IMG/VR virus record: IMGVR_UViG_3300045988_158233
Strand: one strand, 5' to 3'
DNA length: 64,000 bases
Source: a virus
Taxonomy: Duplodnaviria; Heunggongvirae; Uroviricota; Caudoviricetes
Below the pieces are notes generated by a model. That model made no database searches, was not told the DNA's origin, and was given only the letters and a program-made list of their open reading frames with translations. The first letter of the stretch is position 1, and every line of letters starts with the position of its first letter. Both the position numbers and the translations under genes were made by a program. Below are positions 8,321 to 55,519 of the stretch, piece by piece.

Positions 8321-8376
8321 AGCCTGTTTCTGTATATAAATAATAAGTAACTTATTAAATATATACGGAAGCAGGT
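8321..8376 (+). other. Long conserved hairpin (copy 1 of a family with 53698..53731 and 55461..55519)
   Basis: agcctgtttctgtatata ... tatacggaagcaggt: ~14-16-bp stem with two G-U pairs and an AT-rich loop, followed by T-run. Confidence 0.5.
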
Positions 8377-8482
8377 CTTTTAAAAGACACCACCAGACCA
8401 ACTCCCTTCCGTTTTCACTTCCAAAAACTGACACCAGTCGCTATCATCCGCTCATTGTGATAAGTAAGTAACTACCTACCAG

Positions 8483-9232
8483 GTGAGCCACATGAGCCAA
8501 ATCTTTTTCGATACCATCGACAACGACCAGTACGACTTCATGACAGAGTGGAATACCGCTGTTATGGACAAGTGGGTCGCTGAAAACATTGGTTTGTCGC
8601 GCTGTAAAGACGAGGCTGAACTCTTCGAGACGAAGTGGTTTGATTACCGCGACATGCATCCTCTGATGGCCACCTGTCTATTTACGGAGGCATACAAACG
8701 TCAGTACTCAAATATCATGCTGACGCACGGTCGCGAACACTTTGAAACAGCTCCGTTCACCACCGGGTTAAAACGCCTGCCTTATCAGGAGTTGTCGACT
8801 GCCAATAAAACGTCGCTATGGAAAGCACGCCAGTTTGCTGACCGCTATTGCTGCTCATACGACTACTTTATCTCCACCGTTCTTTCCGCAGCTGCACGAC
8901 GACTGTGGGACAAGCTGCCGCGTCCGCAGCATTTGTGGCAGCCAGAACTGATTGAGATATTTGAAGATAAATTAGCCAGACGCGCAACAACCCGTCTGGA
9001 TGACTCTCTGGTTAGCTTTAAGCATATGGGAGACATGCAGTTCAACCCGATTCAGGAAAGCTATTTTGAGTGGATTCTGGAGCGTTTACGCGCCATCCCC
9101 CGCAGCAAGCGCATACGCGCAATTTTCTCCGCTATCTGGCTAATGGAAATCGTTCCAGAGCGCCTTATTTCCGCCCACTTTCCAGAAGAACTGGAAGAAG
9201 CACGGCGGTTTATTGATCCCCTATCTAATTAA
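8483..9232 (+). CDS. Hypothetical protein (first gene of the replication block)
   Basis: 249-aa ORF immediately upstream of the helicase; no motif recognised. Confidence 0.4.
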   Translation: MSHMSQIFFDTIDNDQYDFMTEWNTAVMDKWVAENIGLSRCKDEAELFETKWFDYRDMHPLMATCLFTEAYKRQYSNIMLTHGREHFETAPFTTGLKRLPYQELSTANKTSLWKARQFADRYCCSYDYFISTVLSAAARRLWDKLPRPQHLWQPELIEIFEDKLARRATTRLDDSLVSFKHMGDMQFNPIQESYFEWILERLRAIPRSKRIRAIFSAIWLMEIVPERLISAHFPEELEEARRFIDPLSN

Positions 9233-9243
9233 CTAATACTAGA

Positions 9244-9256
9244 AAACAATTTGTTT
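9244..9256. promoter_or_regulatory. AAACAA-T-TTGTTT palindromic site (family member)
   Basis: Perfect 6-1-6 palindrome ~26 nt upstream of the helicase start; the same motif recurs upstream of at least five other genes. Confidence 0.5.
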
Positions 9257-9275
9257 AAAAAACAAAGGAAAGCAC

Positions 9276-10616
9276 ATGACCGAACTTTGCCATACAGGAC
9301 GCGGGCTGTCCGAAGAGTTTGATGAAGATTTCCAGAACAGACTGACGGCATATTTTTGTCGTGATCACGAGTTTCTTACTCGTGCGGGAGATCTGGTTGT
9401 GCCTAGCCAATTTGCCAATGCGGCCAATGCCATATTGGTTAATATGGTTTCGGGCTATTACCGTATGTACAAGAGCGCGCCCTCTTCATCTGCAATTCTG
9501 GATATGCTTAAGCGTGCGAAACGCGATAAGACTATCCGTGAGGAACTATTCGCCGATGTTGTTGCTGCGTTTAAGCGCATCCTTGCAGAAAAATTGTCCG
9601 ATACCTCGTACATGGTTGACCAGGTATCAACCTTCGCAAAAAGCGTAGCGTTTGATGATGCTCTGATTAAGGCTGCTGAACTGAAAGAGAAAGGCGACTT
9701 TCAGGGGGCGATGGCAATCATGGCCAAGGTTCAGCAGATTGGATCGAACGAAGCGACCGGAATCTATGACTACTACACCTCCGCAAGTGAGCGATTGAAA
9801 GCGCGTGAATATGAGGCTTCAGAGGAGTATGTGCCAAACAGCATTACAACTGGACTCCCTCTGCTCGATAGGTTGTTGTACCAAAAAGGCTGGGCGAAGC
9901 GTGAAATGGTGCTCTTCATGGGGTTCGCTAAATCCGGTAAATCGACCGCAATGGGTGAGTTTTCCATAAACGCAACGCTTGCTGGCTACAATGTTCTGTA
10001 TCTCTCGCTGGAGGTTCACACCACCATTTTATCCGACCGTTTTGATGCAAGATTGTCGGAGACAGAAATGTCCAAGCTAGTGGAACGGCGCGATGAGGTT
10101 CATCGTAAGTTGGCAGAGTTGGGAGCCACGAAGGGGATTGGTAGTTTGTGGGTGGTTGAGCGTCCGTCAGGAAGTATGTCACCGGCAGATCTGGACCGTA
10201 TGCTTAACAGCATGAAAGCCAACGGCATGGTGCCTGACATGGTTGTTGTCGACTACGCAGATTTGATGCGTGCCAGTTATGACCTTCGTGATGATCGCGC
10301 CAACATTCGTAGTATCTACACCGATTTACGTGCTCTTTATGACAAACATAACGTTGCTGGAATCACGGCATCGCAGACAAACCGTGAAGGTGGCGCGTCA
10401 GAAGTTGCCACAATGATGCACGCCGCCGACAACATCGAAAAAGTACGTATTGCTGACCTGGTAATAACGATCAACAAAACCGAAGAAGAAGAAGCGAAAG
10501 GAGAGGCTCGTCTCTACTTTGCTGGTTCACGTAACCAGCAGGGAGGGATCAGCATTCGCGTTAAACAAAACCTCGAACAAATGCGCTTCATTGAGCGAAT
10601 CTTAGACGTTACCTAA
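9276..10616 (+). CDS. DnaB-like replicative helicase (RecA-fold ATPase domain)
   Basis: 446 aa; Walker A GFAKSGKSTAMGEF in the C-terminal half, Walker B-like VVVDYADLM; conserved AAAGGAA-N-CACATG start context. Confidence 0.7.
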   Translation: MTELCHTGRGLSEEFDEDFQNRLTAYFCRDHEFLTRAGDLVVPSQFANAANAILVNMVSGYYRMYKSAPSSSAILDMLKRAKRDKTIREELFADVVAAFKRILAEKLSDTSYMVDQVSTFAKSVAFDDALIKAAELKEKGDFQGAMAIMAKVQQIGSNEATGIYDYYTSASERLKAREYEASEEYVPNSITTGLPLLDRLLYQKGWAKREMVLFMGFAKSGKSTAMGEFSINATLAGYNVLYLSLEVHTTILSDRFDARLSETEMSKLVERRDEVHRKLAELGATKGIGSLWVVERPSGSMSPADLDRMLNSMKANGMVPDMVVVDYADLMRASYDLRDDRANIRSIYTDLRALYDKHNVAGITASQTNREGGASEVATMMHAADNIEKVRIADLVITINKTEEEEAKGEARLYFAGSRNQQGGISIRVKQNLEQMRFIERILDVT

Positions 10617-10698
10617 AAAATAAGCGTGGAGAACACCTCCACGCTTGATTCATTGGTGAAACAACTTTTCTTTTGCCAAACCACAAAAGAAAAACACA

Positions 10699-11879
10699 TG
10701 AGCCTTTATGTTATATCAACATTTAGGTTGGTCACAATATTGCCTGTTAAAAGTGGAATTATCGTGAGCGAGCTGAAAGAGCTAATTACCGAATTAGATT
10801 TTGAACAATGGTTGGACACTGAAGGTATCGTTTATCGACGTGGAGGCGTGAGTGCTCGCGGTCGTGAAGTGAATATCAAGGAGTGTCCGGTATGCGGCAG
10901 CTCCAACTGGAAGGTATATTTCAATCTGACCAGTGGCGTCGGCAAATGCTTCGCTGGTGATCATCCCGAAGAGATTCAGTTCAATAAGCTGGTCTTCCTC
11001 AAGCACTACAGCGGTAAATCACGACGACAGTTCGAGGAATATGTGCAGAACGCTCTTCTTTCCCAGGGGTGGGCACCAAAGAAAGAAGAGATAGTGCTTA
11101 CAAGCACAGTCGAGTTAGAGGGACCACTTGCACTCCCTCGTCATTACGAACTTCCTATAGATGGCCGTCTTCCAGACTATCTGGTTGAACGAAACATATC
11201 GCCTGAAATGGCAAAGTATTTTGACCTACGATACTGCGTCGAAGGCAAGCACGCTTATGTAGATCCGTATACAGATCAGGTAAAAGGACAGATATTCGAT
11301 ATGCGAGTACTGATACCGGTTTACGATCTGGATGGGGTAATGAAGACATTTCAGGGACGAGACATTACCGGTACAGCAGACCGCCGCTACCTCTTTCCTA
11401 TGCAGCTTCCAGCTTCAGGTAAGTTTCTCTACAACGGCCATAATGCAGTTGGCAAACAGACTGTAGTTGTCTGTGAGGGGGCGTTCGATGTTATGGGAGT
11501 TAAACGAGCTATTTTTGACGAAGAAACATTACGTGATTACGTGGAACCAATAGGAACGTTCGGGATGCATCTATCTGGCAACACCACTCAGGATGCAGAA
11601 GATCAGCTGGGCGCGTTCCTGACGCTCAAGGCGCGTGGATTACGTAATGTGATCATGATGTGGGATAGTGAAAAGCAAGCTATACGCAACACTATGGCCG
11701 CAGCCAGGCGACTCACAAGTATTGGTCTTAATGTCAAAGTTGCGTGTTTGGGCGAGGAAGGACTCGACCCCGGCGATGCGACACCGGGGCAGATTATCAA
11801 AGCCTACTATTGCGCAAAACCTTATTCACGACAGCTTGAACTCTTAAGCAAGGTGAAAGGCATTGCAGCACTAGTTTGA
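10699..11879 (+). CDS. DNA primase (zinc-ribbon + TOPRIM)
   Basis: Zinc-finger CPVCGSSNWKVYFNLTSGVGKCFAG and TOPRIM-like VVCEGAFDVMGV. Start placed at the ATG preceded by AAAAGAAAAACACATG rather than the longer track ORF start 10626. Confidence 0.65.
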
Positions 11880-13016
11880 ACCAGTATTAGTCACATACAC
11901 ATTGACCGAAAATGATTTAACTTCTGTATTGAAGTTGTCAGTCATTACCGCGAGGTAGGCATTCTTGGTATCTCTGAATTGCTTCAGGATGATTTGAACG
12001 TTATCGGTGCAAACAAACGAGGTAGCCAGATTGCCTCCTTTCTCTGAAAAATCCTTCAGGAAGGTGCAGTCAACTTTGCCATCATTAGCGGTGAAGGTAG
12101 CATCATCACCCTGCCAGGTAAATGTAGCGTTAACGCCCTTATCAATGGATTTAGCAATAAGTCGCTGGGTGGCGGATTTTGTTTTGGCTTTGGAAGCCGG
12201 CGCTCGATATTTGCCGCTTTCTTTCAGTTCTGCAATGTAATCGCAGCCTCTTTTTTCTCCTTTATCGCAAGCAGTCTGATAAAGGTCGGCTGCTTTTTTA
12301 TAGTCCTTTTTTACACCTTCCCCATTCTCATACATAATGCCAAGATTGGTTATGGCGTCGGCGTTTCCAAGTTCCGCTGCCTTTTTATACCACTTAACTG
12401 CTTCTGCATCATTGCGTTTAACGCCTAACCCATCATCGTATAGTATTCCTAATCCTATCATAGCTTCTGAACTGCCTTGGTCTGCCGCCTTTTTGTAATA
12501 AGTAAAAGCCTTTTTATAATTCTTTTTAACGCCTTTACCATATTGGTAATACGCCCCAAGAACTGAAGTTGCTTTAACATACCCGGCATCAGAGGCTAGT
12601 TTGAAGTATTTAATGGCGAGTGCATGATCTACTTTACCAAGCATCCCCTTTTGATAAATAGCACCAAGATTGTTGTAGGCTCTACCTTCACGAGCATCCC
12701 CCGCAAGTTTGTAGTACTCAACAGCTTTATTTAGGTCTTTATCTACACCCTCGCCAAATGTGTACATAACTCCAAGTGCATAATATGCTACTTTATCTCC
12801 CTTTTCTGCAGCTAGATCAATCCACTTCTTGGCCTCAACTACATCCTTATCAAAACCATTGACACCATCAAAATAATTTGTACCTAACTCACTTTGTGCT
12901 GCGGTATCCCCTGCGGTAGCGGCTTCTATCAGCGTTTGTTTATTGTCTGCGTTAACGAATCCAGAGTTAAAAAGCAAAGTTAATGCCAGCAACGATGAAG
13001 ATTTTATGTATTTCAT
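11871..13016 (-). CDS. Secreted Sel1-repeat (TPR-like) protein
   Basis: Signal peptide MKYIKSSSLLALTLLFNSGFVNA, then about eight ~36-aa repeats of the form A-x-YY-LG-MY-x-GEGV-KD-x-KA-x-x-WYKKAA; C-terminal ~100 aa non-repetitive. Start trimmed to the Met at the signal peptide. Confidence 0.75.
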   Translation of the reverse strand: MKYIKSSSLLALTLLFNSGFVNADNKQTLIEAATAGDTAAQSELGTNYFDGVNGFDKDVVEAKKWIDLAAEKGDKVAYYALGVMYTFGEGVDKDLNKAVEYYKLAGDAREGRAYNNLGAIYQKGMLGKVDHALAIKYFKLASDAGYVKATSVLGAYYQYGKGVKKNYKKAFTYYKKAADQGSSEAMIGLGILYDDGLGVKRNDAEAVKWYKKAAELGNADAITNLGIMYENGEGVKKDYKKAADLYQTACDKGEKRGCDYIAELKESGKYRAPASKAKTKSATQRLIAKSIDKGVNATFTWQGDDATFTANDGKVDCTFLKDFSEKGGNLATSFVCTDNVQIILKQFRDTKNAYLAVMTDNFNTEVKSFSVNVYVTNTGSN

Positions 13017-13249
13017 GTTTTTTTTTCTGTTGATATAGGATGAACAGTTTAGACGCGGCAAGCGTCAAGTGTGCGAAAAAGGGTACTTAAATTTAGTTAA
13101 TATGTCAGCTTTGTTGATTTAGTTTATGGTCGGTAAAGTTACTGGGAAACTAATAACCATAAGAAATAGTACGCCATTTAATTATTGTGGCACTGCTCGT
13201 GTTTTGATTAACTAATACCTGCGATAAATATAAATAAAGGGAAGCCAAC

Positions 13250-18008: not shown

Positions 18009-18083
18009 GATGGTGTAGCTCAGCGGTAGAGCAGTTGGCTGTTAACCAACTGGTCGGTGGTTCGAATCCACCCACCATCGCCA
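18009..18083 (+). tRNA. tRNA-Asn (anticodon GTT)
   Basis: Manual fold: acceptor gatggtg/caccatc, T-arm ggtgg-ttcgaat-ccacc, anticodon loop ctGTTaa, 3' CCA encoded. Confidence 0.75.
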
Positions 18084-18088
18084 ATTTA

Positions 18089-18175
18089 GGAGAGTTAGTC
18101 CGTAGAGGTAGCGGGGTAGACTGTAAATCTACTGTCATTGCGACTCGGGTGGTTCGACTCCATCACTCCCCACCA
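18089..18175 (+). tRNA. tRNA-Tyr (anticodon GTA), class II with long variable arm
   Basis: Manual fold: anticodon stem gtaga/tctac with loop ctGTAaa, long variable arm, T-loop ttcgact, 3' CCA; one A-C mismatch in the acceptor stem. Confidence 0.65.
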
Positions 18176-18179
18176 AATT

Positions 18180-18255
18180 GCCGGTTTAGCTCAGTTGGTA
18201 GAGCGCCTGCCTTGTAAGCAGGATGTCAGCGGTTCGAGTCCGTTAACCGGCACCA
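18180..18255 (+). tRNA. tRNA-Thr (anticodon TGT)
   Basis: Manual fold: acceptor gccggtt/aaccggc, anticodon stem cctgc/gcagg with loop ctTGTaa, T-loop ttcgagt, 3' CCA. Confidence 0.75.
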
Positions 18256-18566: not shown

Positions 18567-18722
18567 GACACAGCGTTGAGCGGTTTGGCCTTTTAATCAA
18601 CTCGATTAAGACTCCGCTAACATAAACCAGACCGCTCAACGCTGTGATAGACAATTACGGCAGACGTTCTTAACCATAGCTTGCTAACATCCTAGCAACA
18701 CTTTTTTTTCAGCGCAAAATTC

Positions 18723-18751: not shown

Positions 18752-19972
18752 TTAATTAAAACCGAATGAATTAAGTTCTGCTTTGAATTTATCGACCATT
18801 TTTTCAACTTCGTTTACAATTGCGTGAATCTCTTCGTCTTTTCTCGGATTAGAATTGAGGTCAAAATATGCCTTATATAAGGCATATTTTGACAAGCTTC
18901 CTTCAATATTTTCAGAGAAAATATTGGTACGACCATCAGTTAATAAGATATCAGCAGATCGGGAATTTAAATTATATTTATAGTAAATCTTTATTAGTCT
19001 GCTTATCTCTTTTTCATTCTTGATTACCCTCTGTCTTTTACCAGCAATATTAAGACTCCAGCCTACATAACTAGTCAGATCGGAATTAAACTTACACACT
19101 TCCGCATCAGCTTTTTCCATATTTAGATTAATATTATTTCTCATGTGTAGCGGTAATTCGTTGAATTTTTGCTGTAAATGCTGTTTGCAGGGATTGTTGT
19201 AAGACCACAGAATTGCGAACGTAGCTCTTTGCATCCGGGTATTCAGATCGATGTTAAAGTTCTCACGATCACGAATCATTTCATCTACATAAAACTCTAC
19301 AGCTTTTCGGTATTCTTTGTTAAAGATCTCGGTAACATACATTTCTAAATAATGGACTTTCGAGATTGCCTCATCAAAAAAAAGCTCACTCTCAAAGAAG
19401 TTGTATTTATTTAAGAGATTAGAAAGTCTACTTAAGTCATAGGTTTTATTATTTTCAATATTAAGACCAAAAATGGCAATTAACAGACTTACTTTATGAT
19501 TAATACTGCTACGTAATTGAGCTATATAAATTCTCTTTTCATCTTCTGCTGATGACAGTAGATAAAACTCTTTATCTAAATAATTTAAAATTAGAATTAT
19601 GTGATTTACATATTTAATGTAAATAGGTTGTTTTGTTACATAATAATAAATGCTTTTGATGGAATTAATGCTCAATTTCGTATTAAACTCTTTGTCATTC
19701 AACAAAGTGTTATTTACGTCCTCAAGTAATTTATCATGTTGCTCTAGTAATATTCCGTACCATTCCTTAAAAGAGGCTTTTTTCATTTCAAGAAGTGAAT
19801 CTGCCGTTAATTGTGTTGCCTTCATTGCAGCTTTTGCACTATTTCTTGCCTCATAAGCAGCCCAAGCAGTAACAAAAGTAGCAAGTGAACCTATAGCCTC
19901 TTTGTATTCTTTAGCCACATCCCAAAAAATAATAGTTATTACACACAATATGAGAATTAATATTAAAGGCAT
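18752..19972 (-). CDS. Hypothetical membrane-anchored protein (AT-rich moron; candidate exclusion/abortive-infection-type function)
   Basis: 406-aa minus-strand ORF; N-terminal TM helix PLILILILCVITIIFW then a K/E/N/I/Y-rich helical domain; very AT-rich codon usage compared with neighbours (by eye). Confidence 0.6.
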   Translation of the reverse strand: MPLILILILCVITIIFWDVAKEYKEAIGSLATFVTAWAAYEARNSAKAAMKATQLTADSLLEMKKASFKEWYGILLEQHDKLLEDVNNTLLNDKEFNTKLSINSIKSIYYYVTKQPIYIKYVNHIILILNYLDKEFYLLSSAEDEKRIYIAQLRSSINHKVSLLIAIFGLNIENNKTYDLSRLSNLLNKYNFFESELFFDEAISKVHYLEMYVTEIFNKEYRKAVEFYVDEMIRDRENFNIDLNTRMQRATFAILWSYNNPCKQHLQQKFNELPLHMRNNINLNMEKADAEVCKFNSDLTSYVGWSLNIAGKRQRVIKNEKEISRLIKIYYKYNLNSRSADILLTDGRTNIFSENIEGSLSKYALYKAYFDLNSNPRKDEEIHAIVNEVEKMVDKFKAELNSFGFN

Positions 19973-35063: not shown

Positions 35064-35125
35064 TCTCTTGAAAATATATAAGTACTTACTTATTATTTTC
35101 GCATAACAACCACATAGGAAAACAC

Positions 35126-37817: not shown

Positions 37818-38351
37818 CACCGCTGACAGCATACACAATCAACTGCCGCTGATAGCATATCGAGAGTCTATCTCACCGCTCACAGCATACTTTACTCGAT
37901 TTTTTACCGCTGACAGCATACTTAAGACATTGCATGAATAATGTGTACCGGTATGGGTATAACCAGAACAAAATTACCGCTGGCAGCATACGAAGGTCTG
38001 ATATATGCCATTAATTACCGCTGATAGCATATCCAAACAAAAATTCCTCAATAAAACACCGCTGACAGCATACGTTCTATCAGGGAGCAGCAGGCAATAA
38101 ATACCTTTCACTACAAGTAATCAGCGCAATGGGAATAGAATGTTAGTGAGCGCAAACCTATATGGAATGCACTCTTCGAGGTTAGTAACCACTGGGGAGG
38201 TATAAAAGAGCATTGAGTGGTGATAGATGATTTACCGCTCACAGCATACGTTTATCTCACTATACCGCTGGTAGCATATCTTTAACCGTTCACAGCATAC
38301 TTTTCAGAAAAATAGCCGCTGATAGCATACATTTCACCGCTGACAGCATAT
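37818..38351. repeat. Iteron array downstream of repA (about 12 copies of a 17-bp repeat, consensus yACCGCTGAyAGCATAy)
   Basis: Copies at about 37818, 37844, 37874, 37905, 37975, 38026, 38057, 38233, 38263, 38284, 38314, 38335; irregular spacing; all in the same orientation. Confidence 0.8.
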
Positions 38352-39445
38352 CAAAGCAGTTTGAGACTATTGGAAAGGATCTCAATCATCTTGATATTTT
38401 CAGGCGTCAAATTCTGCGAAAGTTCAGTTATCTTGTTGATAATGTTCTGTTTAGCATCAATTTCCCCGGCTTTCTCATCTGGTTTTTTGGGTTCGATGTC
38501 TTCAGGTTTTGGCGGTGCGACTTTAAGTTTTGGATTGCGGCTGTGAATCTGGATATAGATCGACCGCCCTCGCTTAATCTCGCTGTATTCGAGATAGCCC
38601 AAATCTTGGAGAGCTTTTAAGCCGTTACGTATAGTCTGATTCTGCGAGCTTACATTCCTGCTACTCAAATTGAGTCGCGCACGCAATCGAGCAAGCGATA
38701 CCGGCGCAGGCTTGGTTGGAAGACTTTCGATGAAGGTGTACAGAGCCTGTGCTGTTTCTTTGCGTGGTAGCTTATTGATAACCTTTAACTGCAAAAGAAC
38801 CTTATGGTCAAAGCGATATAGTTCGGCCAGCTTCGGTTCTGCATAGAACACCACCGTATCTTTCTGCTCGTTGTAGTCCACGCTATTGATGAGGTGCACC
38901 ATCAGAAGCGAGATCTTGTTAGAGCCGTCGACGTTCTTTTCTTCATACGTTCTCTGGAAAGACAGAGTTGTACGCATGATCTTCAAAAGACTGTTTGTAA
39001 GCCGGTCGCGGAGTGTTTTGCGGATCTGTGACGATGGATAGCCACAAAACTTCGCAAATTTCGTGATGCTTAACTCGACACGACCGTTAGGTTCGCCGTA
39101 TTCTGCCAGCGAACGCACAACGCCCACCCACGTTTTGAAATCATGATCCATGTCGAGACGAGGACCGGTTATCTTGATATCGGAATAGCCTTCAGAACGG
39201 GCTACTTCGAGCTGAACAAGCTCCTTTGAAGCATCGATCTCATTTGGCTTGTTACGCTTGCTGTATTTTGTCCCCTTGAGCGTGGGCACGAACAATCCCA
39301 GCCGCATCAACGCAATTGGTTGGACTGTATTGTTGCTATTAGGGACAAGTTCCCCTGTGTACAATTCAAGGGAACCTTCTTCAAAGTTGTCGAGATTATC
39401 TTCTACTTCTTTGTTATTTTTACCTTTTTTATTTTTTGTGGACAT
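38351..39445 (-). CDS. repA: Iteron-type plasmid replication initiator (RepA-like)
   Basis: Minus-strand ORF flanked on both sides by iteron arrays; start trimmed to the Met (MSTKNKKGK...) that does not overlap the upstream iterons; basic N-terminus, ~365 aa. Confidence 0.65.
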   Translation of the reverse strand: MSTKNKKGKNNKEVEDNLDNFEEGSLELYTGELVPNSNNTVQPIALMRLGLFVPTLKGTKYSKRNKPNEIDASKELVQLEVARSEGYSDIKITGPRLDMDHDFKTWVGVVRSLAEYGEPNGRVELSITKFAKFCGYPSSQIRKTLRDRLTNSLLKIMRTTLSFQRTYEEKNVDGSNKISLLMVHLINSVDYNEQKDTVVFYAEPKLAELYRFDHKVLLQLKVINKLPRKETAQALYTFIESLPTKPAPVSLARLRARLNLSSRNVSSQNQTIRNGLKALQDLGYLEYSEIKRGRSIYIQIHSRNPKLKVAPPKPEDIEPKKPDEKAGEIDAKQNIINKITELSQNLTPENIKMIEILSNSLKLL

Positions 39446-39464
39446 GTGGACACCTTTGTCATTC

Positions 39465-39567
39465 AACCGCTGACAGCATACTTGATTTGCCGCTGACAGA
39501 ATACCAAAAACAGTTGGCAGCATACGGTGAACCGCTGACAGACTATCAATTACCGCTGACAGCATAC
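39465..39567. repeat. Iteron array upstream of repA (about 5 copies; probable origin/autoregulatory region)
   Basis: Copies of the same repeat at about 39465, 39488, 39515 (partial), 39529, 39551. Confidence 0.75.
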
Positions 39568-39766
39568 ATGAACATGGCTTCAGACCAGTCGTGGCGCGGC
39601 TTACAGCGATCGGGGATCTTATTTGATCTATACAAGGATCTATCTATGGATCTCTTTATTGGGATCTATCCTGTGGATATGTGAATAATTAAAACAGGCA
39701 TTTACTACCTTCGGCGCACCTGGTGGGTTATCGTTGCCTCGGCTAACAATCACAGAAAAATGACAT

Positions 39767-45282: not shown

Positions 45283-47642
45283 ATGATAAGCATCGTAAAA
45301 CGTAACGGCCAAACAGAGCCGTTATCCGAAGAAAAATACAACCGCGTCGTAATGTATGGCGTAGAAGGCATTCGTGGTGTAAGCGCATCCGCTGTAGCAA
45401 TGGGAGCTGCGGCCAGCATTTTTGATGGGATTACCACCAGCCAGTTGCATGAGGCTTTGGTTAAATCTGCCGCTGATTTGATCTCACCAGAAGCACCAAA
45501 TTACTCACAGGTGGCTGCCCGCCTGAACATTTTTAAAATCCGCAAAGATGCCTTCGGTCGTTACGACTATCCGAACTTCTACCAACACATTGTCAAGAAC
45601 GTTAACAAGGGCGTTTATGACAAGGATTTGCTGACACATTATTCGTTTGAAGAGATCGAAGAACTCGGCAATTACATTAAGCCGAAACGTGACGATCTTT
45701 TTGGCTATGCAGCTACGGTGCAGTTGCAAAGCAAATACCTCGTTCAAAACCGTGTTACTGGTGAGATTCATGAGGGGCCGCAACATATCTATATGCTGGT
45801 AGGCATGTGTCTGTTCCAGAATTGGGAAGACGACTGCGCTGGCAAAACACGTATGGAGATGGTCAAAGGTTTCTATGACGTTACAAGTACGTTCAAACTG
45901 TCTCTGCCCACACCAATCATGGCCGGCGTCCGTACTCCAACCCGTCAGTTCTCCAGTTGTGTGCTGATTGAGTCTGGCGATAGTCTGAAAGGGATTAGTG
46001 CAGCTTCAGCCGCAATTATCGACTACGTTTCACGTCGTGCTGGAATTGGTATTGGTTTTGGCCGTATCCGTGCGCTGGGCAGCGAGATCCGCAATGGTGA
46101 AGCCACCCATACTGGAGTTATTCCATTCCTGAAGCATTTCCAGACGGCTGTTAAATCTTGTTCGCAAGGTGGTGTTCGTGGTGGCGCAGCAACAGCGTTT
46201 TACCCGATCTGGCATCTTGAAGTTGAAAGTCTGCTGGTGGTGAAAAATAACCGTGGTATTGATGAAAACCGCGTTCGCCATCTTGATTACGGCGTCATGA
46301 GTAACCGTCTAATGTACCGTCGACTCGTCAGAAGCGAGAACATCACTCTGTTCAGCCCGCATGATGTGCCTGATATGTACGAAGCCTTCTTCACAGACCA
46401 GGAGCTGTTTGAAAAGCTGTACCATAAATACGAAGCCGATGATTCAATTCGCAAGAAGTCAGTACCTGCCATTGAGCTGTTCTCATCTCTGATGCAGGAA
46501 CGAGCGTCCACGGGCCGAATTTATATTGCGAACGTCGATCATATTAATGAGCATGGCGCTTTCATTCCTGCTCTTGCACCTGTTCGCCAGTCAAACCTGT
46601 GTATGGAGATCACCCTACCCACCCGTCCACTGGCATTTACCGACGACCCGAACGGTGAGATCGCGCTATGCACTTTATCCGCTTTTAACCTCGGAGCCAT
46701 CCGTTCACTGGAGTCTCTTAAAGAGGTGGCGTTCTATGCCGTTGCTGCACTGGATTCGTTACTGGATTATCAAGACTATCCGATGGAGGCAGGCCGAGTT
46801 GCCCGCCACTCAAAGTTGCTTATCCGATGGAGGCAGCCGAAGTGCCTGCCAAAGCTCGTCGTAGCTTGGGAATTGGTGTAACCAACTTTGCTTATTACCT
46901 GGCAAAGAATGGCGTTCGTTATTCTGATACCGCTGGCAATAAACTGGTGCATGAAACGTTCGAAGCTATCCAGTATTACCTTCTTGATGCCAGCTGCCGA
47001 CTTGCTGAAGCAAAAGGTGAGTGTGACTGGTTTGAGCAGACCAAATACGCAATTGGTCAGTTGCCGATCGACCATTACCGTTCTTCATTAGACGAAAGTG
47101 GCGAAACCAACTTTGAGTTAAAGATGCCGTGGGAAGAACTGCGTGAACGTATTGCAAAATACGGCCTTCGCAACTCCACTCTGACGGCACAAATGCCATG
47201 CGAGACTTCCAGCCAGATCACTAATTCCACCAACGGCATCGAACCGCCTCGTGGCCCGGTGTCAGTGAAATCTTCTAAGGACGGCATCGTCAAGATGGTC
47301 GTGCCTGAGTTTGAAAAACTGAAGGAACAGTATGAATACCTGTGGGATATGCCGGACAACCGCGGCTATCTGACAAAGGTGGCGATCATCCAGAAGTTCT
47401 TTGACCAGGCTATTTCGGCCAATACCAACTATGACCCTTCTCGCTTTGAAGGCGATAAAGTCCCAATGATGACGCTACTGTCAGATTTGCTTCTCGCCTA
47501 CAAGATGGGAGTTAAAACGCTTTACTACCACAACACCAGAGATGGTGCAGGAAAGCGTGATGACGACGAACCGCAGAATCCACTGGCGCAAGCTGTAGCC
47601 GTCGAGCCAGAAGATGAGTGCGACGGAGCCTGCAAAATCTGA
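45283..47642 (+). pseudogene. nrdA: Ribonucleotide reductase class Ia large subunit (nrdA), interrupted by a 44-bp imperfect tandem duplication causing a frameshift
   Basis: Track ORFs 45283..46881 and 46827..47642 together match NrdA end to end (ATP-cone N-terminus, PTRQFSSCVLIE, C-terminal CDGACKI). The frame break falls exactly at a duplicated 44-bp unit (copy A 46777..46820, copy B 46821..46864); reading only copy B gives the expected DYQDYPMEAAEVPAKARRSLGIGV. Confidence 0.8.
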
Positions 47643-49981: not shown

Positions 49982-51112
49982 GTGGTTACTTATCTTTGTG
50001 AGGTTTTTGTGTCACTCCTTTTGAATCGTGAGCATACGAACGGTCAGGTAACAAACGCATCGTATGCAAAAGTTATTGAGACGGTGCTTAAAAGCGGCGT
50101 GCAGGCTGATGATCGCACAGGCACTGGTACTTTAAGCACCTGCTACGTTCCCTCTTACTACATGCTTACTGGTGGGACTGTGCCGCTTATTTCTGGAAAG
50201 GCGGTAAATCTTAAGCCACTGCTTGTCGAACTTGAGTGGTATCTGAAAGGCACGGGCAACATCCAATTTCTCAAGGATAACGGCGTTAAGATTTGGGATG
50301 CATGGGCCGATGAGAATGGCGATTTGGGGCCAGTTTACGGTAAGCAGTGGCGTCGATGGGAAGATACCCGCATCGTGAGCCATAGTGAATATCTGAGCAA
50401 GATCGCTACTTTCCGTGAACGCGGGTACAAAGTCGAGGGATACCTAGGTATCAGTGAAGATCGCGTAGTGCTGTCCCGTGAAATCGATCAGCTACAGCGT
50501 ATTGTCGATACACTGCGCACGAACCCTACCGATCGTCGCATCATGCTTAACGCATGGAACGTAGGCGAGCTTGAGGATATGAAACTGCCACCTTGCCACT
50601 TTGTCTTCTCTTTGTGGAGTCGTGAGCTTGATTTTGAAACCCGTTTAACGATGGCAACTGACATTGGTCTTCAACACAGTCGCCTCGGTTACGAGTCTAT
50701 CTACACCAAGATGCTATACGATCTGGAGATGGACGGCAGTGTTACTGAAGCTGAACTGGATGAACTTGGAATCCCCAAACGCATCCTCAACTCCTGCCTC
50801 GTACAGCGTAGCGTAGACACTTTTGTTGGTATGCCATTCAATATTGCTGGCTATGGCATTCTCACTCATTTTCTCGCGAAGATTACGGGTCACATGGCCG
50901 GTGCATTTGTGCATTTTGGCTTTGACGTGCATTTGTACAATAACCACATGGAAAGTGTGCGTGAGCTAATGCAACGACAGGCTCCAGAGCATTCAGATCC
51001 GGTCGTTATATTCCCTAATGAATGGTCTGAGCTGGATGATTTCAAATGGGACGAGATTCTTATTCTTGGCTATGCCCCTCTACCGTGGATCAAGGTTCCA
51101 GTGGCGGTGTGA
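49982..51112 (+). CDS. thyA: Thymidylate synthase (ThyA family) with an internal ~50-aa insertion
   Basis: DRTGTGTLS, WADENGDLGPVYGKQWR, active-site LPPCH, and C-terminal HLYNNH; GTG/alternative start, exact start uncertain. Confidence 0.85.
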   Translation: MVTYLCEVFVSLLLNREHTNGQVTNASYAKVIETVLKSGVQADDRTGTGTLSTCYVPSYYMLTGGTVPLISGKAVNLKPLLVELEWYLKGTGNIQFLKDNGVKIWDAWADENGDLGPVYGKQWRRWEDTRIVSHSEYLSKIATFRERGYKVEGYLGISEDRVVLSREIDQLQRIVDTLRTNPTDRRIMLNAWNVGELEDMKLPPCHFVFSLWSRELDFETRLTMATDIGLQHSRLGYESIYTKMLYDLEMDGSVTEAELDELGIPKRILNSCLVQRSVDTFVGMPFNIAGYGILTHFLAKITGHMAGAFVHFGFDVHLYNNHMESVRELMQRQAPEHSDPVVIFPNEWSELDDFKWDEILILGYAPLPWIKVPVAV

Positions 51113-51114
51113 TA

Positions 51115-51527
51115 TGGCAAGAGGTATGTATGTCTTATGCGAAATTGAAGGTGTGCTGGCAAATACCAGCCATCGTAAATCTGTATCTGACTCGGATGCA
51201 GGCCAATTCATTGCCGGTGATGAACTCATTTTCCCCACCAGCCGTATGTTGCGTGGTTTTGCTCGCTCAGGGGCTGAAGTGGTGCTTATCAGTAGCCGCT
51301 CTGAAACTCTTGAAGCGCCCACTAAACGATGGCTGAAAGATTTTGGTGTTGATTACGACTGGCTTCATCTCGTACCGAATAGCACTAGTTATGAGAAGCA
51401 TATTAAGCGCACATTAGCGGAGCATAAAGGCGATCTGCTTATCGCTGCGCTGGTGCACGATCCTCGACTCCGTGCCGCTTTAGCTGACTCTCATCATAGA
51501 CCGGTCATCTATGAGGTGAGCAAATGA
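51115..51527 (+). CDS. Hypothetical protein
   Basis: Internal ATG of track ORF 51018..51527, chosen because it begins just after the thyA stop; no motif recognised. Confidence 0.3.
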
Positions 51528-52000
51528 AGATGATAGCTGCTGTTGGCCGTAACTATGAGATCGGCATAGCGAACGAACTGCCCTGGCGTTGTTCTACCGA
51601 TCTGAAGCTATTTAAGAGACTCACCAAAAACGCCACTGTCGTTATGGGGCGTAAAACGATGGAAAGTCTCAAACGCCCTCTTCCAGAGCGTCATAACCTC
51701 GTTTTGACGCGCTCTCATGGCTTTGTACCAAATGGATTCTACCCTGCTGGTGTGGATGATGTGTTGCGATTACCAGAGCCTGTGTGGGTGATTGGCGGGA
51801 AACAAATTTACTCGCTATTCATGCCGCATGTTGAAGAGATTTGGCTCTCCCACATCGACGTTGATGTGCCAAACGCCGATGCATTCTTCCCGGCAAGCAT
51901 GATGCGTAATTTAGGCTTTGTGCCTGTTGAAACAGCTTATACCCAACGAGCCAGCGAGGAAGAGCCTGGCTTTTCGCAGATCGTATACAGAAGGTCGTAA
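51524..52000 (+). CDS. folA: Dihydrofolate reductase
   Basis: 158 aa; N-terminal MIAAVGRNYEIGIANELPW and VVMGRKTMESLKRPLPERHNLVLTRS match the DHFR fold signature. Confidence 0.8.
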   Translation: MKMIAAVGRNYEIGIANELPWRCSTDLKLFKRLTKNATVVMGRKTMESLKRPLPERHNLVLTRSHGFVPNGFYPAGVDDVLRLPEPVWVIGGKQIYSLFMPHVEEIWLSHIDVDVPNADAFFPASMMRNLGFVPVETAYTQRASEEEPGFSQIVYRRS

Positions 52001-52644
52001 TGGATTACCGGATTGGGATCACTGGTGCTCAGGGCAGTGGGAAAACAACCCTGGCTAAATATATCGACAAACATTACGGAATCCCTTACGTGGATGCTGG
52101 TGTCGGAAGTTTGATGAGCCGCCTCGGTGTTCGAGTAGGTGAGTCTATGCCTCTATATGAGCGGCTTCAGATTCAAATGGAAATAGCAAAGCATATAGAG
52201 CTACTTACACGTGGTGTTGAAGGCTTTGTTATCGATCGCACACCTGCTGATGTTATGGCCTACACGTTGGATTTGGTCGGCCATACAAATGAAGATCGGT
52301 GTATTGAGTTAGCCCTCGATATCGAAAAGTTTTGCCACAAAACTGCTATTTCAAACTTTAACGCCATTGCTGGCCTACGCCCGGGGGTCTCTCTCTCAGA
52401 GCGAGATTACTTGCGGTCACAACGAGCATCATTAGACCGTCTGTATGTCGCTCGTATTGATGCGTTGATGTGCGGGGAACTGACAAAAATTCACCTGCAT
52501 CCGCAAAGGGGAGATCTGCAAACCTTCGTCGTTTCCAACCGGTATCGCACAGTTGAAGCAAGAGCCAGATCAGTAATGAGAATGCTCGATAACGCGGTAG
52601 AAAAGATAGAAAACCGCTTCTGTGGCCGAGTTACCGTTCATTAG
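52000..52644 (+). CDS. P-loop nucleotide/nucleoside kinase-like protein
   Basis: Walker A IGITGAQGSGKTTLAKY at the N-terminus; 214 aa; location in the nucleotide-metabolism block. Confidence 0.5.
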   Translation: MDYRIGITGAQGSGKTTLAKYIDKHYGIPYVDAGVGSLMSRLGVRVGESMPLYERLQIQMEIAKHIELLTRGVEGFVIDRTPADVMAYTLDLVGHTNEDRCIELALDIEKFCHKTAISNFNAIAGLRPGVSLSERDYLRSQRASLDRLYVARIDALMCGELTKIHLHPQRGDLQTFVVSNRYRTVEARARSVMRMLDNAVEKIENRFCGRVTVH

Positions 52645-52705
52645 AAATTGTTCGCCTCTTCGACATTGCGACAATAAAACTCTCAAAATGGGTTAAGGAT
52701 AAAAA

Positions 52706-53125
52706 ATGTTTAGTGAACTGTTGCTTGAAGATGAACTGGATCGGAAAACAACAGAGGCTTTGATTCGTGTAGCGGACGAACATTCCCGGTCGCTTATGAG
52801 CGATCGAGAGGCTCGTCTGGCTATTCGTGCCATATTCGAAACTGTGCAGGGGCTTGTTGGCGCACAAGTAGGTGAAGCCATTAACATCGCCATGTCTCAG
52901 TTCAGTGAAGGCAGTATAAAGCCTCTGTTTCCTATGCATTTGATGCTGGCTGGTGGCACGGTGCTTTACGTCTCTGTTTGTCTGGATAGCAACCAAATCA
53001 ACATTCTCAACACGGCGTCAGGTAAGTGGAAAGATCCGGTTGTCTGTGAAACCAGTGAAGAAACTTTGAAAAAAGCGGCTCAATTTGTACGTAGCGCACT
53101 ACTTAAGGGCGCTAAGAAGTTGTAA
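52706..53125 (+). CDS. Hypothetical protein
   Basis: 139-aa ORF. Confidence 0.4.
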   Translation: MFSELLLEDELDRKTTEALIRVADEHSRSLMSDREARLAIRAIFETVQGLVGAQVGEAINIAMSQFSEGSIKPLFPMHLMLAGGTVLYVSVCLDSNQINILNTASGKWKDPVVCETSEETLKKAAQFVRSALLKGAKKL

Positions 53126-53131
53126 GGAGTT

Positions 53132-53692
53132 TTGATGACAACGATTGTTGCAGGCATCGATATCGAGTCTACGGGGCTGGATTTCCTTTCTGGTCATAAA
53201 ATTATTGAAATCGCAATTACCCGCTATGAACTGGAGACACAGAGACATATTGATAGTCTGGAGATGCGTTTTAACCCTCGCAGGAACATAGATCCGAAAG
53301 CTCAAGCCGTTCATGGCATTTCATTAGAACAGCTGGCAGCTGAACCTTTGTTGTCAAATCATGCCAGCGAAATTGGCGCTTATATGGAGGCATGTAGTGC
53401 GTGGGTTGCTCATAACGGCGAAGCGTTTGATATACCATTTATTAGACACGAGTTTTCAGGGTATGGAGTAAGACTGCCAGACGTTCCCGTTATAGATACT
53501 ATGTTATCGGGATTGTGGGCCACAGAAGACGGCAAACGTCCTCGCCTTGAAGAATTGGCCTTCTCTCTTGGCTTTATATACGATCATACCAAAGCACATA
53601 GTGCCTTATATGACACAAACTTAATGATGCAATGCTTCTTTAAGGCACGTAATAAATACGGATTTTTTAAATTACCCTCTGAAATTGTGTAA
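53132..53692 (+). CDS. DnaQ-like 3'-5' exonuclease (DEDDh)
   Basis: Exo I AGIDIESTGLD, Exo II HNGEAFDIPFI, Exo III HSALYDTN. Confidence 0.7.
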   Translation: MMTTIVAGIDIESTGLDFLSGHKIIEIAITRYELETQRHIDSLEMRFNPRRNIDPKAQAVHGISLEQLAAEPLLSNHASEIGAYMEACSAWVAHNGEAFDIPFIRHEFSGYGVRLPDVPVIDTMLSGLWATEDGKRPRLEELAFSLGFIYDHTKAHSALYDTNLMMQCFFKARNKYGFFKLPSEIV

Positions 53693-53697
53693 AACAA

Positions 53698-53736
53698 AAG
53701 CCTGCTTTAAAGATAGTTTGAAGCAGGCTTTCTTTT
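53698..53736 (+). terminator. Rho-independent terminator (member of the agcctgctt...aagcaggct hairpin family)
   Basis: aaagcctgcttt-aaagatagttt-gaagcaggcttt followed by T-rich run. Confidence 0.6.
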
Positions 53737-53852
53737 AAAGAACAGTCGCCTTTCAATCATTTCCTGCCTGTATTTAATACTTTTCCGCCTGATAGGTTTA
53801 GTCAAAATGTAGCCATCGAAACGCAAATGCAACTAAACAGAAGGAGACTTAC

Positions 53853-54662
53853 ATGAGTTCGGTTGAAAATGTAATGACAAATGATGATCTGGATGAGCTG
53901 ACAGCCATGTTGCAATCACTTGATGAACCAGTAAAAAAAGCTGCACAGGTTGAAAATACTGATGATATTGACGATCTGCTTCTCGGCCTCGATGCTGGCG
54001 TAGCCATGAGTTCTGATGATGTTGCCGAAGAACTGTTCAATGAAGAAAAAGTAGGTGATTTCAGCTCCGCTTTAAATGAGTTGGAATTAGCTCATGAGCC
54101 TATAAACGTAATTAACGCTGAAAGTGTTGAAGCTGCCGTAAACGAGCCAGAACAATTGGGATTTATTGAGGTTGAAGAGTGTGTTGAGGTTAATGAAGAA
54201 TTAAAAGTTCAACAGTCAAATGATAGCAATACAAATAAAAAAGCTCGTACTGCAAGAGGTCCTCGTTTTACTTTAAGTGATAAAGATGATTCGTTTTTCA
54301 ATAAAGCAGGCTTAGAAAAAGATATTTTCTTAGACGCTTACGATAACGCGCCTGTCAAAGCAAAGGATAAGATATTAAACCTTCTTAATTGGTTTAGCGG
54401 AGGTCCAGATATTAGTGTTTACACGGTAATTTCCATGAGACACCTTCTCACAGAAAAGAAGGCTACAAGTAATAGTATTAAGATTGCTTTAATGAGCAAT
54501 CCAGAAAAACCGTATCCGCTTAACACTGCGTCAACTCAGGCTGGGCAAATGATGGCTGTATTTCCAGCTACAGGAATTGCCGTTAGAGACGGTGGAAATC
54601 TAACATTGAACGAAGAATCACCGATCGTTAAGAAGTTTGTCGCGGAGTACACTATTGGATGA
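53853..54662 (+). CDS. Hypothetical acidic protein
   Basis: 269-aa ORF, strongly acidic N-terminal half. Confidence 0.4.
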   Translation: MSSVENVMTNDDLDELTAMLQSLDEPVKKAAQVENTDDIDDLLLGLDAGVAMSSDDVAEELFNEEKVGDFSSALNELELAHEPINVINAESVEAAVNEPEQLGFIEVEECVEVNEELKVQQSNDSNTNKKARTARGPRFTLSDKDDSFFNKAGLEKDIFLDAYDNAPVKAKDKILNLLNWFSGGPDISVYTVISMRHLLTEKKATSNSIKIALMSNPEKPYPLNTASTQAGQMMAVFPATGIAVRDGGNLTLNEESPIVKKFVAEYTIG

Positions 54663-54833
54663 CGTTCCCCTACTGAAAATAAAGCCCATAGAGAGCTTTA
54701 TAGTGCTGGGTAAGCCAATCACATACCCAGCACCACAAAAACGCGCCAGAGAGCTTCTCGTTTGCATTTCTGGCGCGTTTTATTTGATTGCCATACATAA
54801 AATCAAATGCAAAAATAGGTAATCACTTACCTA

Positions 54834-55439
54834 TTGAGAAAGAAGATGATTGCAGCCGAAAAAATCAAAAAGCGAAAGCGCGACAACTCTCTTCGTGACC
54901 TCTGGAGAACACCTGACTGGCTGTTTAATGCCATTCAACGTTATCTGGGAGTGACATTTGATGTTGACGTTGCCTGCAATAAGGACAATGCAAAGCTGCC
55001 TATTTTCATAGGCGTTGAGCGCGATGCTTTGAAATCTGAATGGGGGCAGCCAGGTACAATTGCCTTCCTCAATCCACCCTACTCCAAAATCTCCCCCTGG
55101 ATTGATGCGGCTATACGTGAGCAGGCTCGCGGAGTTACAACAGTGATGCTAATTCCTCAATCCCTCGATACAAAGTGGTATGAGCGTGCAACAGAGTGTG
55201 CGAATGAGACGATTATTCTGTCTGGTGGCCGCGTAGCGTTTGTCGAGCCTGACGTCAATCTGGGTCAGGTAGAAGTAAACATCAACCCCGGTGGCAGTAT
55301 GCTCGTTGTTTTTCGCGGATTCTGTCAGGACGCTGGGCACTCTATAAGCAAGATCCCTTTGGACGTCATGAAAAGTCTGGGAGGGTATGATCCTGCGAAT
55401 GTGATCAGGAAAAAAAGACCATCAAAGAAGGCTGCTTAG
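54834..55439 (+). CDS. Phage-type DNA N6-adenine methyltransferase (Dam-like)
   Basis: 201 aa; catalytic NPPY in IAFLNPPYSKISPW; overall size and layout of small phage Dam enzymes. Confidence 0.6.
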   Translation: MRKKMIAAEKIKKRKRDNSLRDLWRTPDWLFNAIQRYLGVTFDVDVACNKDNAKLPIFIGVERDALKSEWGQPGTIAFLNPPYSKISPWIDAAIREQARGVTTVMLIPQSLDTKWYERATECANETIILSGGRVAFVEPDVNLGQVEVNINPGGSMLVVFRGFCQDAGHSISKIPLDVMKSLGGYDPANVIRKKRPSKKAA

Positions 55440-55460
55440 TTTGCTCTGGCGTCTGTAATT

Positions 55461-55519
55461 AGCCTGCTTCTGTATATATAAATAACTACATATTAATTAT
55501 TAATATACGGAAGCAGGCT
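55461..55519 (+). other. Long conserved hairpin (copy 2 of the family seen at 8321..8376)
   Basis: agcctgcttctgtatata ... atatacggaagcaggct: 16-bp stem with one G-U pair, ~27-nt AT-rich loop, followed by gtttt. Confidence 0.55.

Follow-up and report, generated by a model that had tools for sequence, protein, structure and literature searches.

Long hairpins repeated at gene-block boundaries of an SSU5-like phage-plasmid: candidate long-stem transcription terminators

Introduction

Phage-plasmids of the SSU5/pHCM2/pMT1 type are common in clinical Enterobacterales, and the non-coding control elements of these genomes are essentially uncharted. The 64,000-nt stretch of Caudoviricetes DNA analyzed here (IMG/VR record IMGVR_UViG_3300045988_158233, referred to in its entirety as the window) carries three long intergenic hairpins, designated copies 1, 2, and 3, which raise the question of whether a strong transcription terminator has simply been used three times or whether the sequence is kept for a further role. 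The initial annotation of this DNA had entertained both possibilities, describing a three-member family with near-identical stems at module boundaries and pointing to loop conservation as a sign of a protein-binding or RNA-processing element. Region 50000-58000 of the window is 98% identical to the Escherichia phages Cyrano (OV696614) and PhiR41_1 (PV340561), whereas its identity to Salmonella phage SSU5 and to several Klebsiella phage-plasmids is ~77%; from these identities the window is taken to be ~64 kb out of a ~108-kb SSU5-like phage-plasmid. Almost all genes lie on the + strand. The explanation favored here, to which we give about an even chance of being right, is that the hairpins are unusually long-stem, factor-independent terminators and insulators that close gene blocks of this phage-plasmid.

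Structure and position of the hairpins

With G.U pairs allowed, the uninterrupted stems extend over 17 bp in copy 1, 15 bp in copy 2, and 18 bp in copy 3, and the window contains seven uninterrupted stems of at least 15 bp versus 0.07 +/- 0.26 in 40 dinucleotide shuffles. The RNA folds of the three copies reach -32.0 (z -7.9), -21.3 (z -4.7), and -30.4 kcal/mol (z -5.8), respectively, and none of 200 shuffles of any copy folded as well as the native sequence. Together with conservation in relatives, the shuffles rule out that the hairpins are chance structures or independent terminators. The basal stem of copy 1 contains two T.G wobbles and is topped by a 2x2 A.A internal loop, above which a 7-bp AT stem ends in a 3-nt loop. 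In both copies 1 and 3, the interior (21-25 nt) is purely A/T and pairs further, and the stem is GC-clamped, with CCTG/CAGG at its base. Copy 2 has an A-tract on its upstream side and TTTCTTTT downstream, at 53729-53738.

All three stems annotated as near-identical are present at the coordinates given for them, but their likeness is uneven: AGCCTGCTT...AAGCAGGCT is exact in copies 2 and 3, copy 1 has AGCCTGTTT...AAGCAGGTC instead, and copy 2 shares with the family only the 9-nt AGCCTGCTT. Common to copies 1 and 3 are CCTG-Y-TTCTGTATATA...ATATACGGAAGCAGG and one T.G wobble (CTG/CGG). The proposal that these two copies also share loop sequence and G-U positions holds for that wobble, but not for the second T.G of copy 1 or for the central loops, which are unlike (TAAGTAACTTATTAAAT in copy 1 vs CTACATATTAATTATTAAT in copy 3). 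The exact 9-mer occurs five times in the window, and four of the five occurrences are the arms of copies 2 and 3. The fifth (AAGCAGGCT, + strand, 54304-54312) lies inside the open reading frame (ORF) 53853-54662 without a partner arm and is probably there by chance.

Copies 1 and 3 form the core of a larger unit, bracketed by an outer inverted repeat, TCTGG...CCAGA (Table 1). The order of its parts is a left box with TCTGG (often GTCTGGGAG), a spacer of 8-25 nt, the hairpin, a short T-tract, a spacer of 13-25 nt, and a right box containing CCAGA, often as CTCCCAGACC. Pairing of GTTGTTCT/AGAACAAC or of TCTGG/CCAGA is present in most variants of copy 1 in relatives. No target-site duplications were found around the outer boxes when looked for.

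As annotated, the hairpins are located at module boundaries (before the replication block, after the exonuclease gene, and after the Dam gene), and each stem is followed by a T-run: TCTTTT, TTTCTTTT, and TGTTTTGT, respectively. Copies 2 and 3 are co-oriented with the preceding genes and begin 5 nt and 22 nt past their stop codons. Copy 1 is flanked in the window by a divergent cargo ORF and by the replication block (a 249-amino-acid ORF, helicase, and primase). In five loci of relatives that lack cargo, it lies 30-31 nt past the stop of the small gene downstream of parA, a spot which, from its location, is the natural site for that operon's terminator. This 119-amino-acid gene is labeled 'parB-like' by position only, and its product has no Pfam domain.

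A promoter-like TTCCAA...TATCAT / TATGAT is found ~45 nt past copy 1, with a constant 17-nt spacing in the E. coli and Klebsiella lineages; therefore, copy 1 separates the upstream unit from a likely replication-block promoter, and is likely to lie between the point where that unit terminates and this promoter. A stricter promoter scan of the window did not list the site, and past copy 3 a promoter was looked for and none convincing was seen. Dam looks like a closed unit, consisting of an upstream hairpin (54738-54781), a promoter-like site, the gene itself, and the long hairpin of copy 3. The upstream hairpin is flanked by an A-tract and a T-tract and looks like a bidirectional terminator.

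The sites orthologous to copies 1, 2, and 3 in related genomes (slots 1, 2, and 3) are consistent with termination. The T-tract is kept on the + side, with a mean of 5.3 T in slot 1 and 5.2 T in slot 3 (best 8-nt window) versus 3.0-3.8 on the opposite side; the minimum across all slot 1 variants is 4 T, and slot 3 is T-rich in nearly all variants. Slot 2 always holds a hairpin and a T-run in relatives, its sequence being free, and in Klebsiella and Salmonella it is occupied by unrelated short terminators (e.g., GAAAGCGCCTGATGGCGCTTTCTTTTT). Likewise, in the distant lineages L053-L059 an ordinary, unrelated terminator with a GC stem and a T-run follows Dam in slot 3. In the mechanism proposed here, the GC-clamped stem of 15-18 bp would fold in the nascent RNA of the + strand, and the U-rich tract (UCUUUU, UUUCUUUU, or UGUUUUGU) would then free the transcript. 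Copy 1 would in this way end the parA/small-gene (or cargo) unit, copy 2 the exonuclease operon, and copy 3 the Dam unit.

Distribution of the hairpin family

A covariance model built on slot 3 sequences matched copy 1 at 62.5 bits (E 9e-11) and the composite element of copy 3 at 138 bits, and a search with it found only slots 1, 3, and a fourth site, slot 4; copy 2 was not detected. The complete genome of PhiR41_1 has exactly three full copies, namely, the counterparts of window copies 1 and 3 and the slot 4 copy, which is an inverted copy 1 with its flanks included. Slot 4 is located between an 88-amino-acid ORF and a gene for a protein with a DNA-binding domain, with a ParB-like/methylase/ATPase block on one side; judged by position, the DNA-binding gene may encode a small terminase (terS-like). 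Of the three hairpins grouped in the initial annotation, copies 1 and 3 are therefore full members, whereas full membership of copy 2 is ruled out by the covariance model and by the unrelated terminators in slot 2 of relatives. Copy 2 is best classed as a canonical terminator, at most a distant or partial relative of the family, and its 9-nt identity (chance probability roughly estimated at p ~0.005) may go back to an exchange with a family copy that involved part of the sequence. Each genome carries the same ~55-nt sequence with its outer boxes at three places and a shortened relative at a fourth.

A strict two-arm pattern is present in at least 120 stretches of viral contigs, nearly all of them on SSU5-sized contigs. 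Among 185,579 species-representative genomes, the pattern was found in only 8 stretches, all on plasmid-sized or smaller contigs; they come from Kluyvera, Buttiauxella, and Yersinia pestis (a contig of 108 kb), plus a bin labeled 'Bacillota' that probably reflects contamination. In PLSDB, the family occurs at 2,493 places in 796 plasmids (~3.1 per record; typical size 106-116 kb), whose hosts include Klebsiella (311), Escherichia (237), Enterobacter (91), Yersinia (62), and Salmonella (49). The same orthologous slots are used across plasmids of Escherichia, Klebsiella, Salmonella, Yersinia, Enterobacter, and Citrobacter; copy 1 is at the same place in every relative examined, and copy 3 is kept after Dam in most. 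Thus, the conservation of stems in relatives, on which the initial annotation had made its proposal depend, is borne out at the same slots throughout the PLSDB records. For the distant lineage L060, searching with both arms exactly retrieved the slot 3 copy only, so that no family-wide covariation is shown by it, and a search with a single 14-nt arm returned non-specific matches only.

An Rfam scan of the window placed three tRNAs alone above the gathering threshold; at the hairpins, it gave sub-threshold, miRNA-precursor-like matches of 17-28 bits versus thresholds of 60-211, and no known RNA family was found. No feature is annotated at the hairpins in the SSU5, Cyrano, or PhiR41_1 records or in the PLSDB entries, and a literature search found no description of them. 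The family is unannotated; in kind, it is a variant among known repeated terminator-type intergenic elements and not a new category. For annotation, a conserved and readily recognized ~55-nt hairpin at fixed block boundaries offers a practical landmark of transcription units.

Sequence exchange and the cargo hotspot

Within genomes, copies of the family resemble each other in ways that cut across orthology. In contig 2880329822_1, a lineage-specific interior (TATATTAAATAATAAATAAC...) is common to all three slots, and slot 1 of contig 2576861193_4 matches slot 4 perfectly (100%) once reverse-complemented. In slots 1 and 4, Klebsiella lineages share AAATACTAAGT and E. coli lineages AAATAATAAGT, and L076 carries in slot 1 the window's hairpin exactly reverse-complemented, stem mismatch and loop included. 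These alignments indicate that family copies exchange sequence with one another. Since nearly the same sequence is present at several places per genome, the copies recombine and become homogenized, and at times entire hairpins end up flipped.

Homology with the E. coli relatives starts at 8313-8323. The interval from the stop of the gene downstream of parA to copy 1 is either empty, as in the five loci mentioned above, or filled with a cassette of 0.8-2.0 kb. At least 12 unrelated cassettes were seen (in L070-L149 upstream of position ~2840), and their ends fall at the left edge of copy 1 or within ~30 nt of it. Just past that stop codon of the gene downstream of parA, nearly every cassette starts with a short, unrelated terminator of its own, and each slot 1 locus has one family copy. 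In the window, the cassette carries a single listed ORF, which has no Pfam hit. By these comparisons, a cargo hotspot has its fixed right-hand edge at copy 1, and the hairpin marks the exact boundary, beside the partition genes, at which accessory and possibly defense genes are exchanged. This copy, before the replication block, serves as the constant right-hand joint of the hotspot, and recombination at the hairpin may be what drives cassette exchange.

A comparable arrangement is known from the PeSL cassettes of T4-type phages, composites of an early promoter and a stem-loop terminator (PMC2839356, PMC4122927). As in PeSL, a conserved terminator-type hairpin is repeated in one genome, is found at junctions of conserved blocks and variable genes, acts as an exchange point for unrelated sequences, and, in slot 1, is followed by a promoter-like site; homology breakpoints fall in the motif at slot 1 only. 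Unlike PeSL, which are present in dozens flanking variable ORFs on both sides, the hairpins here number 3-4 and keep to fixed slots, a complete genome having three full copies, and the family hairpin stands on one side of the cassette only, the other side having its own short terminator. In addition, the hairpin here is much longer and has outer boxes, and a relation in sequence to PeSL is not expected.

Table 1. Coordinates of the hairpins, their outer boxes, and neighboring features (window positions unless stated otherwise)
Feature	Position	Strand	Description
Cargo cassette	7084..8320		From the stop (7083) of the 119-amino-acid gene downstream of parA up to copy 1
Short convergent terminator	7092-7123		Inside the cargo cassette
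Cargo ORF	7144-8217	minus	357 amino acids, phrog_22329, function unknown
Left outer box of copy 1	8299..8309	+	GTTGTTCTTGG; imperfect complement to 8393-8402
Long hairpin copy 1 (slot 1)	8321..8376	+	Basal stem CCTGTTTCTGTATATA / TATATACGGAAGCAGG
T-tract of copy 1	8376..8381	+	TCTTTT; first half of the 12-nt palindrome TCTTTTAAAAGA
Right outer box of copy 1	8393..8402	+	CCAGACCAAC; past the T-tract
Promoter-like site	8419..8447	+	TTCCAA-17 nt-TATCAT, between copy 1 and replication-block ORF; suggested by consensus only
Pol III epsilon-like exonuclease gene	53132-53692		Upstream of copy 2
Hairpin copy 2 (slot 2)	53697..53731	+	15-bp stem AAAGCCTGCTTTAAA / TTTGAAGCAGGCTTT, 5-nt loop
Hairpin unrelated to the family	54738-54781		Between ORF 53853-54662 and Dam; 15-bp stem AAAACGCGCCAGAGA...TCTGGCGCGTTTT
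Promoter-like site	54788-54816		3' end overlaps palindrome 54810-54834
Dam gene	54834-55439		Upstream of copy 3
Left outer box of copy 3	55445..55449	+	TCTGG
Long hairpin copy 3 (slot 3)	55461..55519	+	18-bp basal stem, one T.G, 25-nt A/T-only interior
T-tract of copy 3	55520..55527	+	TGTTTTGT
Right outer box of copy 3	55538..55542	+	CCAGA, within CTCCCAGACC; past the T-tract
Fourth family member (slot 4)	45582-45636		In PhiR41_1 (L150), outside the window

Conservation, pairing, and the limits of termination

In the slot 3 alignment, mean pairwise identity is 91% in the arms and 91% in the right outer box versus 75% in Dam coding DNA and 38-64% in the adjacent spacers, and the sequence just past the T-tract is 38-47% identical between lineages. 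A role beyond termination, which had been proposed from the loop, is thus better argued from the arms and outer boxes; the loop is not its basis. Covariation, which the initial annotation had suggested looking for in relatives, is essentially absent from the main family (79 variants) and appears in comparisons with distant lineages and in the outer helix. A rare compensatory change occurs in L044 (CTGCGTCTG/CAGACGCAG), sister E. coli plasmids have a compensated slot 2 allele (CCTACTT/AAGTAGG), and the slot 3 arms of the distant lineages L060/L061 are GCCTTGCTCCCATA/TATGGGAGCAAGGC and GCCGTGTTCCCATA/TATCGGAGCACGGC. With the outer helix described next, these compensated changes indicate that pairing is under selection. 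The length of the A/T interior differs by several bp through (TA)n slippage, often asymmetrically.

For 12 diverse slot 3 sequences, RNAalifold predicted five TCTGG/CCAGA pairs, invariant except for one mismatch in one sequence, and also paired the T-tract with an upstream purine-rich tract. In SSU5, the composite element reaches -55.3 kcal/mol (z -8.1); its outer stem, 17 bp long, surrounds the inner hairpin and leaves the T-tract in an internal loop. The outer helix is compensated between lineages (GGGAGTG/CACTCCC vs GGGAGTT/AACTCCC), its inner part reading, depending on the lineage, GGGAGTG-TTTCAGAA/TTCTGAA-CACTCCC, GGGAGTT-AGTTTG/CAAAC-AACTCCC, or GGGAGTTGT/ACAACTCCC.

The stem length has a precedent in TerR of the Bacillus plasmid pLS20, where a stem of >14 bp confers resistance to processive antitermination, loop and stem sequence being irrelevant and length alone mattering; E. 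coli terminator stems average 7-8 bp (PMC10325885). All three stems here (15, 17, and 18 bp) exceed 14 bp, and the hairpins share with TerR a GC-rich base, an AT-rich middle, a U-tract, and a location at operon ends of a mobile element, making robustness against antitermination an attractive candidate explanation of their length by analogy. Unlike in TerR, the U-tracts here are shorter, with 4-5 U, the sequence is conserved, one family member lacks a U-tract, and no antitermination system is known or was found in the phage-plasmid among the neighboring proteins scanned. Should the long stems be antitermination-proof insulators, they would broaden a mechanism whose only demonstration to date is in a conjugative plasmid of Gram-positive bacteria.

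A number of observations weigh against termination as the whole explanation. The U-tracts fall short of the canonical 7-9 nt, and the AT-rich interior gives low stability per nucleotide; a simple terminator consensus scan lists none of copies 1-3. Typical terminator dimensions (stem ~5-14 bp, loop 3-8 nt) are not those of copies 1 and 3, and even copy 2, with a loop within this range, has a stem slightly above it. At slot 4, a T-tract is missing on both sides (3.2 and 3.1 T of 8), and the long slot 3 hairpins of L060/L061 also lack one. No antiterminator was recognized among 10 neighboring proteins scanned with PHROGs or in the Cyrano and PhiR41_1 annotations seen. On the transcribed strand, Klebsiella-type slot 3 hairpins have two C.A mismatches, and no strand folds consistently better across slots. 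The ~91% identity of arms and boxes exceeds the need of a terminator, which requires structure and not sequence: in a set of 79 unique variants that covers all slots and lineages, 12 of the 14 basal pairs never change or do so in no more than four cases, and the two remaining pairs vary by transitions only, the arms changing independently of each other. At position 8, for example, the counts of TG (36), CG (20), TA (12), and CA (11) equal the product of the marginal frequencies. Finally, the conserved right outer box lies past the T-tract and is therefore not part of a terminated transcript. Given the excess conservation, the slot 4 hairpin without a T-tract, and the position of the right box, an added RNA-processing or DNA-level role is plausible.

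Alternative roles

One such role, which we regard as unlikely, is that of an RNA processing or stability element, in which the inner hairpin and outer helix would form a duplex of ~110-130 nt on read-through and be cut by host RNase III, separating or destabilizing the mRNAs of adjoining blocks and perhaps coexisting with partial termination. An RNase III site calls for ~20 bp or more of mostly continuous double-stranded RNA in an intergenic transcript; the inner stem provides 17 + 7 bp, and the total helix exceeds two turns. The stability of the SSU5 composite and the conserved and compensated outer helix also fit cleavage, as does slot 4, where a hairpin without a T-tract suits processing better than termination. 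No recognizable promoter follows slots 3 and 4, and the genes downstream of them probably need read-through. T7 RNase III sites are related intergenic hairpins of two or more helical turns, with a characteristic internal loop at the cleavage site, and likewise resemble each other within one genome; in lambda sib/tI, the terminator hairpin is the top of a longer site formed only on read-through. The elements described here are like the former in being related intergenic hairpins within one phage genome, and like the latter in having an inner terminator-like hairpin nested in a longer helix whose 3' arm lies past the U-tract. Unlike T7 sites, however, their inner stem is nearly perfect and the element is present in both orientations, and cleavage here is hypothetical. 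The Rfam likeness is limited to sub-threshold, generic long-hairpin (miRNA precursor) models, and an enzyme without a sequence consensus would not account for invariant arms. Moreover, foldability has no consistent strand bias, the C.A mismatches of Klebsiella slot 3 fall on the transcribed strand, and slot 4 is conserved despite its inversion.

A broader proposal, held with similarly low confidence, is that the hairpin and its boxes form a sequence-specific cis element read by a phage-plasmid or host factor on DNA, as a cruciform or hairpin, or on RNA. Such an element would link the partition/replication block, the Dam unit, and the packaging block, besides serving as a recombination joint for cassette swaps; dispersed centromere or cohesion sites, priming signals, and a sib-like retroregulatory switch between the plasmid and lytic states are examples of what it might be. 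The excess of sequence conservation hints that the plasmid-to-lytic switch may involve a trans-acting factor or a processing step.

A site acting purely at the DNA level is somewhat more doubtful. The inverted repeat, as duplex or cruciform, and the GTCTGGG/CCCAGAC boxes would be bound by a phage-plasmid or host protein and might serve as dispersed centromere-like or cohesion sites, as replication or priming signals, or as a recombination site. Sequence, beyond structure, is conserved in arms and boxes, and the two variable positions vary independently in each arm, as half-sites might. Either orientation is accepted, slot 4 being inverted with its flanks and some slot 1 alleles flipped, and foldability is without strand bias. 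A 33-bp pure A/T palindromic core lies between GC clamps, and sequences of this kind extrude cruciforms in supercoiled DNA. In the empty-site genomes, copy 1 is directly downstream of the partition operon, and the phage-plasmid N15 offers a precedent in its dispersed inverted-repeat centromeres, which are short perfect palindromes bound by SopB. As in N15, inverted-repeat copies are scattered among plasmid-prophage genes, one of them beside the partition operon; unlike N15, they have 14-bp arms with an A/T palindrome of 25-35 bp and variable length between them and a T-tract after them, and binding is hypothetical. Against a protein site, (TA)n slippage of the interior would rotate the half-sites on duplex DNA, and compensation in the outer-helix spacers would be unneeded. 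No candidate binding protein was found, the neighboring small ORFs being neither paralogous nor endowed with Pfam domains, and the one-sided, conserved T-tract at slots 1 and 3 would be left unaccounted for.

Improbable, finally, is a repeat that itself regulates nothing and is either a recombination linker or selfish, its terminator look being incidental and its persistence owed to inter-copy exchange and to the viability of recombinants joined there: copies do exchange sequence and get flipped within genomes, the left edge of copy 1 is exactly where homology to the E. coli relatives sets in, and many cassettes abut this copy, but the hotspot is found at slot 1 only, the same three or four orthologous slots are used across genera with ~3 places per record, copy number is constant without target-site duplications, the strict pattern is as rare in species genomes as reported above, and exchange alone would let lineages drift, yet the arms are alike in all. 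The enterobacterial REP/BIME, ERIC, and MITE-type elements are intergenic imperfect palindromes able to terminate, stabilize mRNA, and recombine. The hairpins share with them an intergenic location, imperfect palindromy, and sequence conservation, but belong to one phage-plasmid group and to orthologous slots, are not chromosomal or high-copy (many non-orthologous copies, host chromosomes included, would characterize those families), and have no terminal repeats at true ends. A chromosomal REP or MITE is ruled out by the confinement of the strict pattern to phage-plasmid-type contigs and by the lack of target-site duplications.

Several specific motifs were also considered and rejected. The arms hold CTGTAT, as in a LexA box, but by inspection the halves are >30 nt apart and most right arms have ACGG and not ACAG; inspection likewise revealed no WATCAANNNNTTR motif of an integration host factor (IHF) site in the A/T interior. 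Integron attC cores are RYYYAAC/GTTRRRY, which the outer boxes do not fit, and a paper on integrons in phages has nothing on these elements. The hairpins are not tied to a repeated neighbor gene, the small ORFs beside slots 1, 3, and 4 not being paralogous.

Other elements in the window

Three further very long hairpins are unrelated to the family. Two of them, at 18569-18646 (a 20-bp stem containing CCAGACCG) and 18860-18893 (a 34-nt perfect palindrome, GTCAAAATATGCCTTATATAAGGCATATTTTGAC), are just downstream of a tRNA cluster (18009-18252), and the third, at 60271-60314, has a 16-bp stem.

Two kinds of shorter palindrome recur. The palindrome AGAAAACAAnTTGTTTAA, often followed by AAGGAAAAACACATG, is found ~15-35 nt before start codons at 6002, 9238, 36217, 47699, and 58650 on the + strand and at 57921 and 63194 on the - strand, and could act as an operator common to these sites or as a hairpin that controls translation. 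Palindromes of the form TARGTA...TACYTA (e.g., ATAGGTAAGTATATACCTAT and TAAGTAAGTAACTACCTA) occur at 3018, 8461, 31555, 37028, 45213, 54810, 57030, and 61995, inside or just past promoter-like sites, and a phage-plasmid regulator probably uses them as operators. The A/T interior of the long hairpins is faintly like them, and the covariance model gave a match at 35070-35100 that is not significant (E 7.3).

Clusters of iterons with 21-nt spacing (ACCGCTGACAGCATAC) extend over 37831-39571 and presumably represent a plasmid origin or another binding array. In the tail-fiber gene, 120-nt tandem coding repeats, 63-78% identical, span 926-2463.

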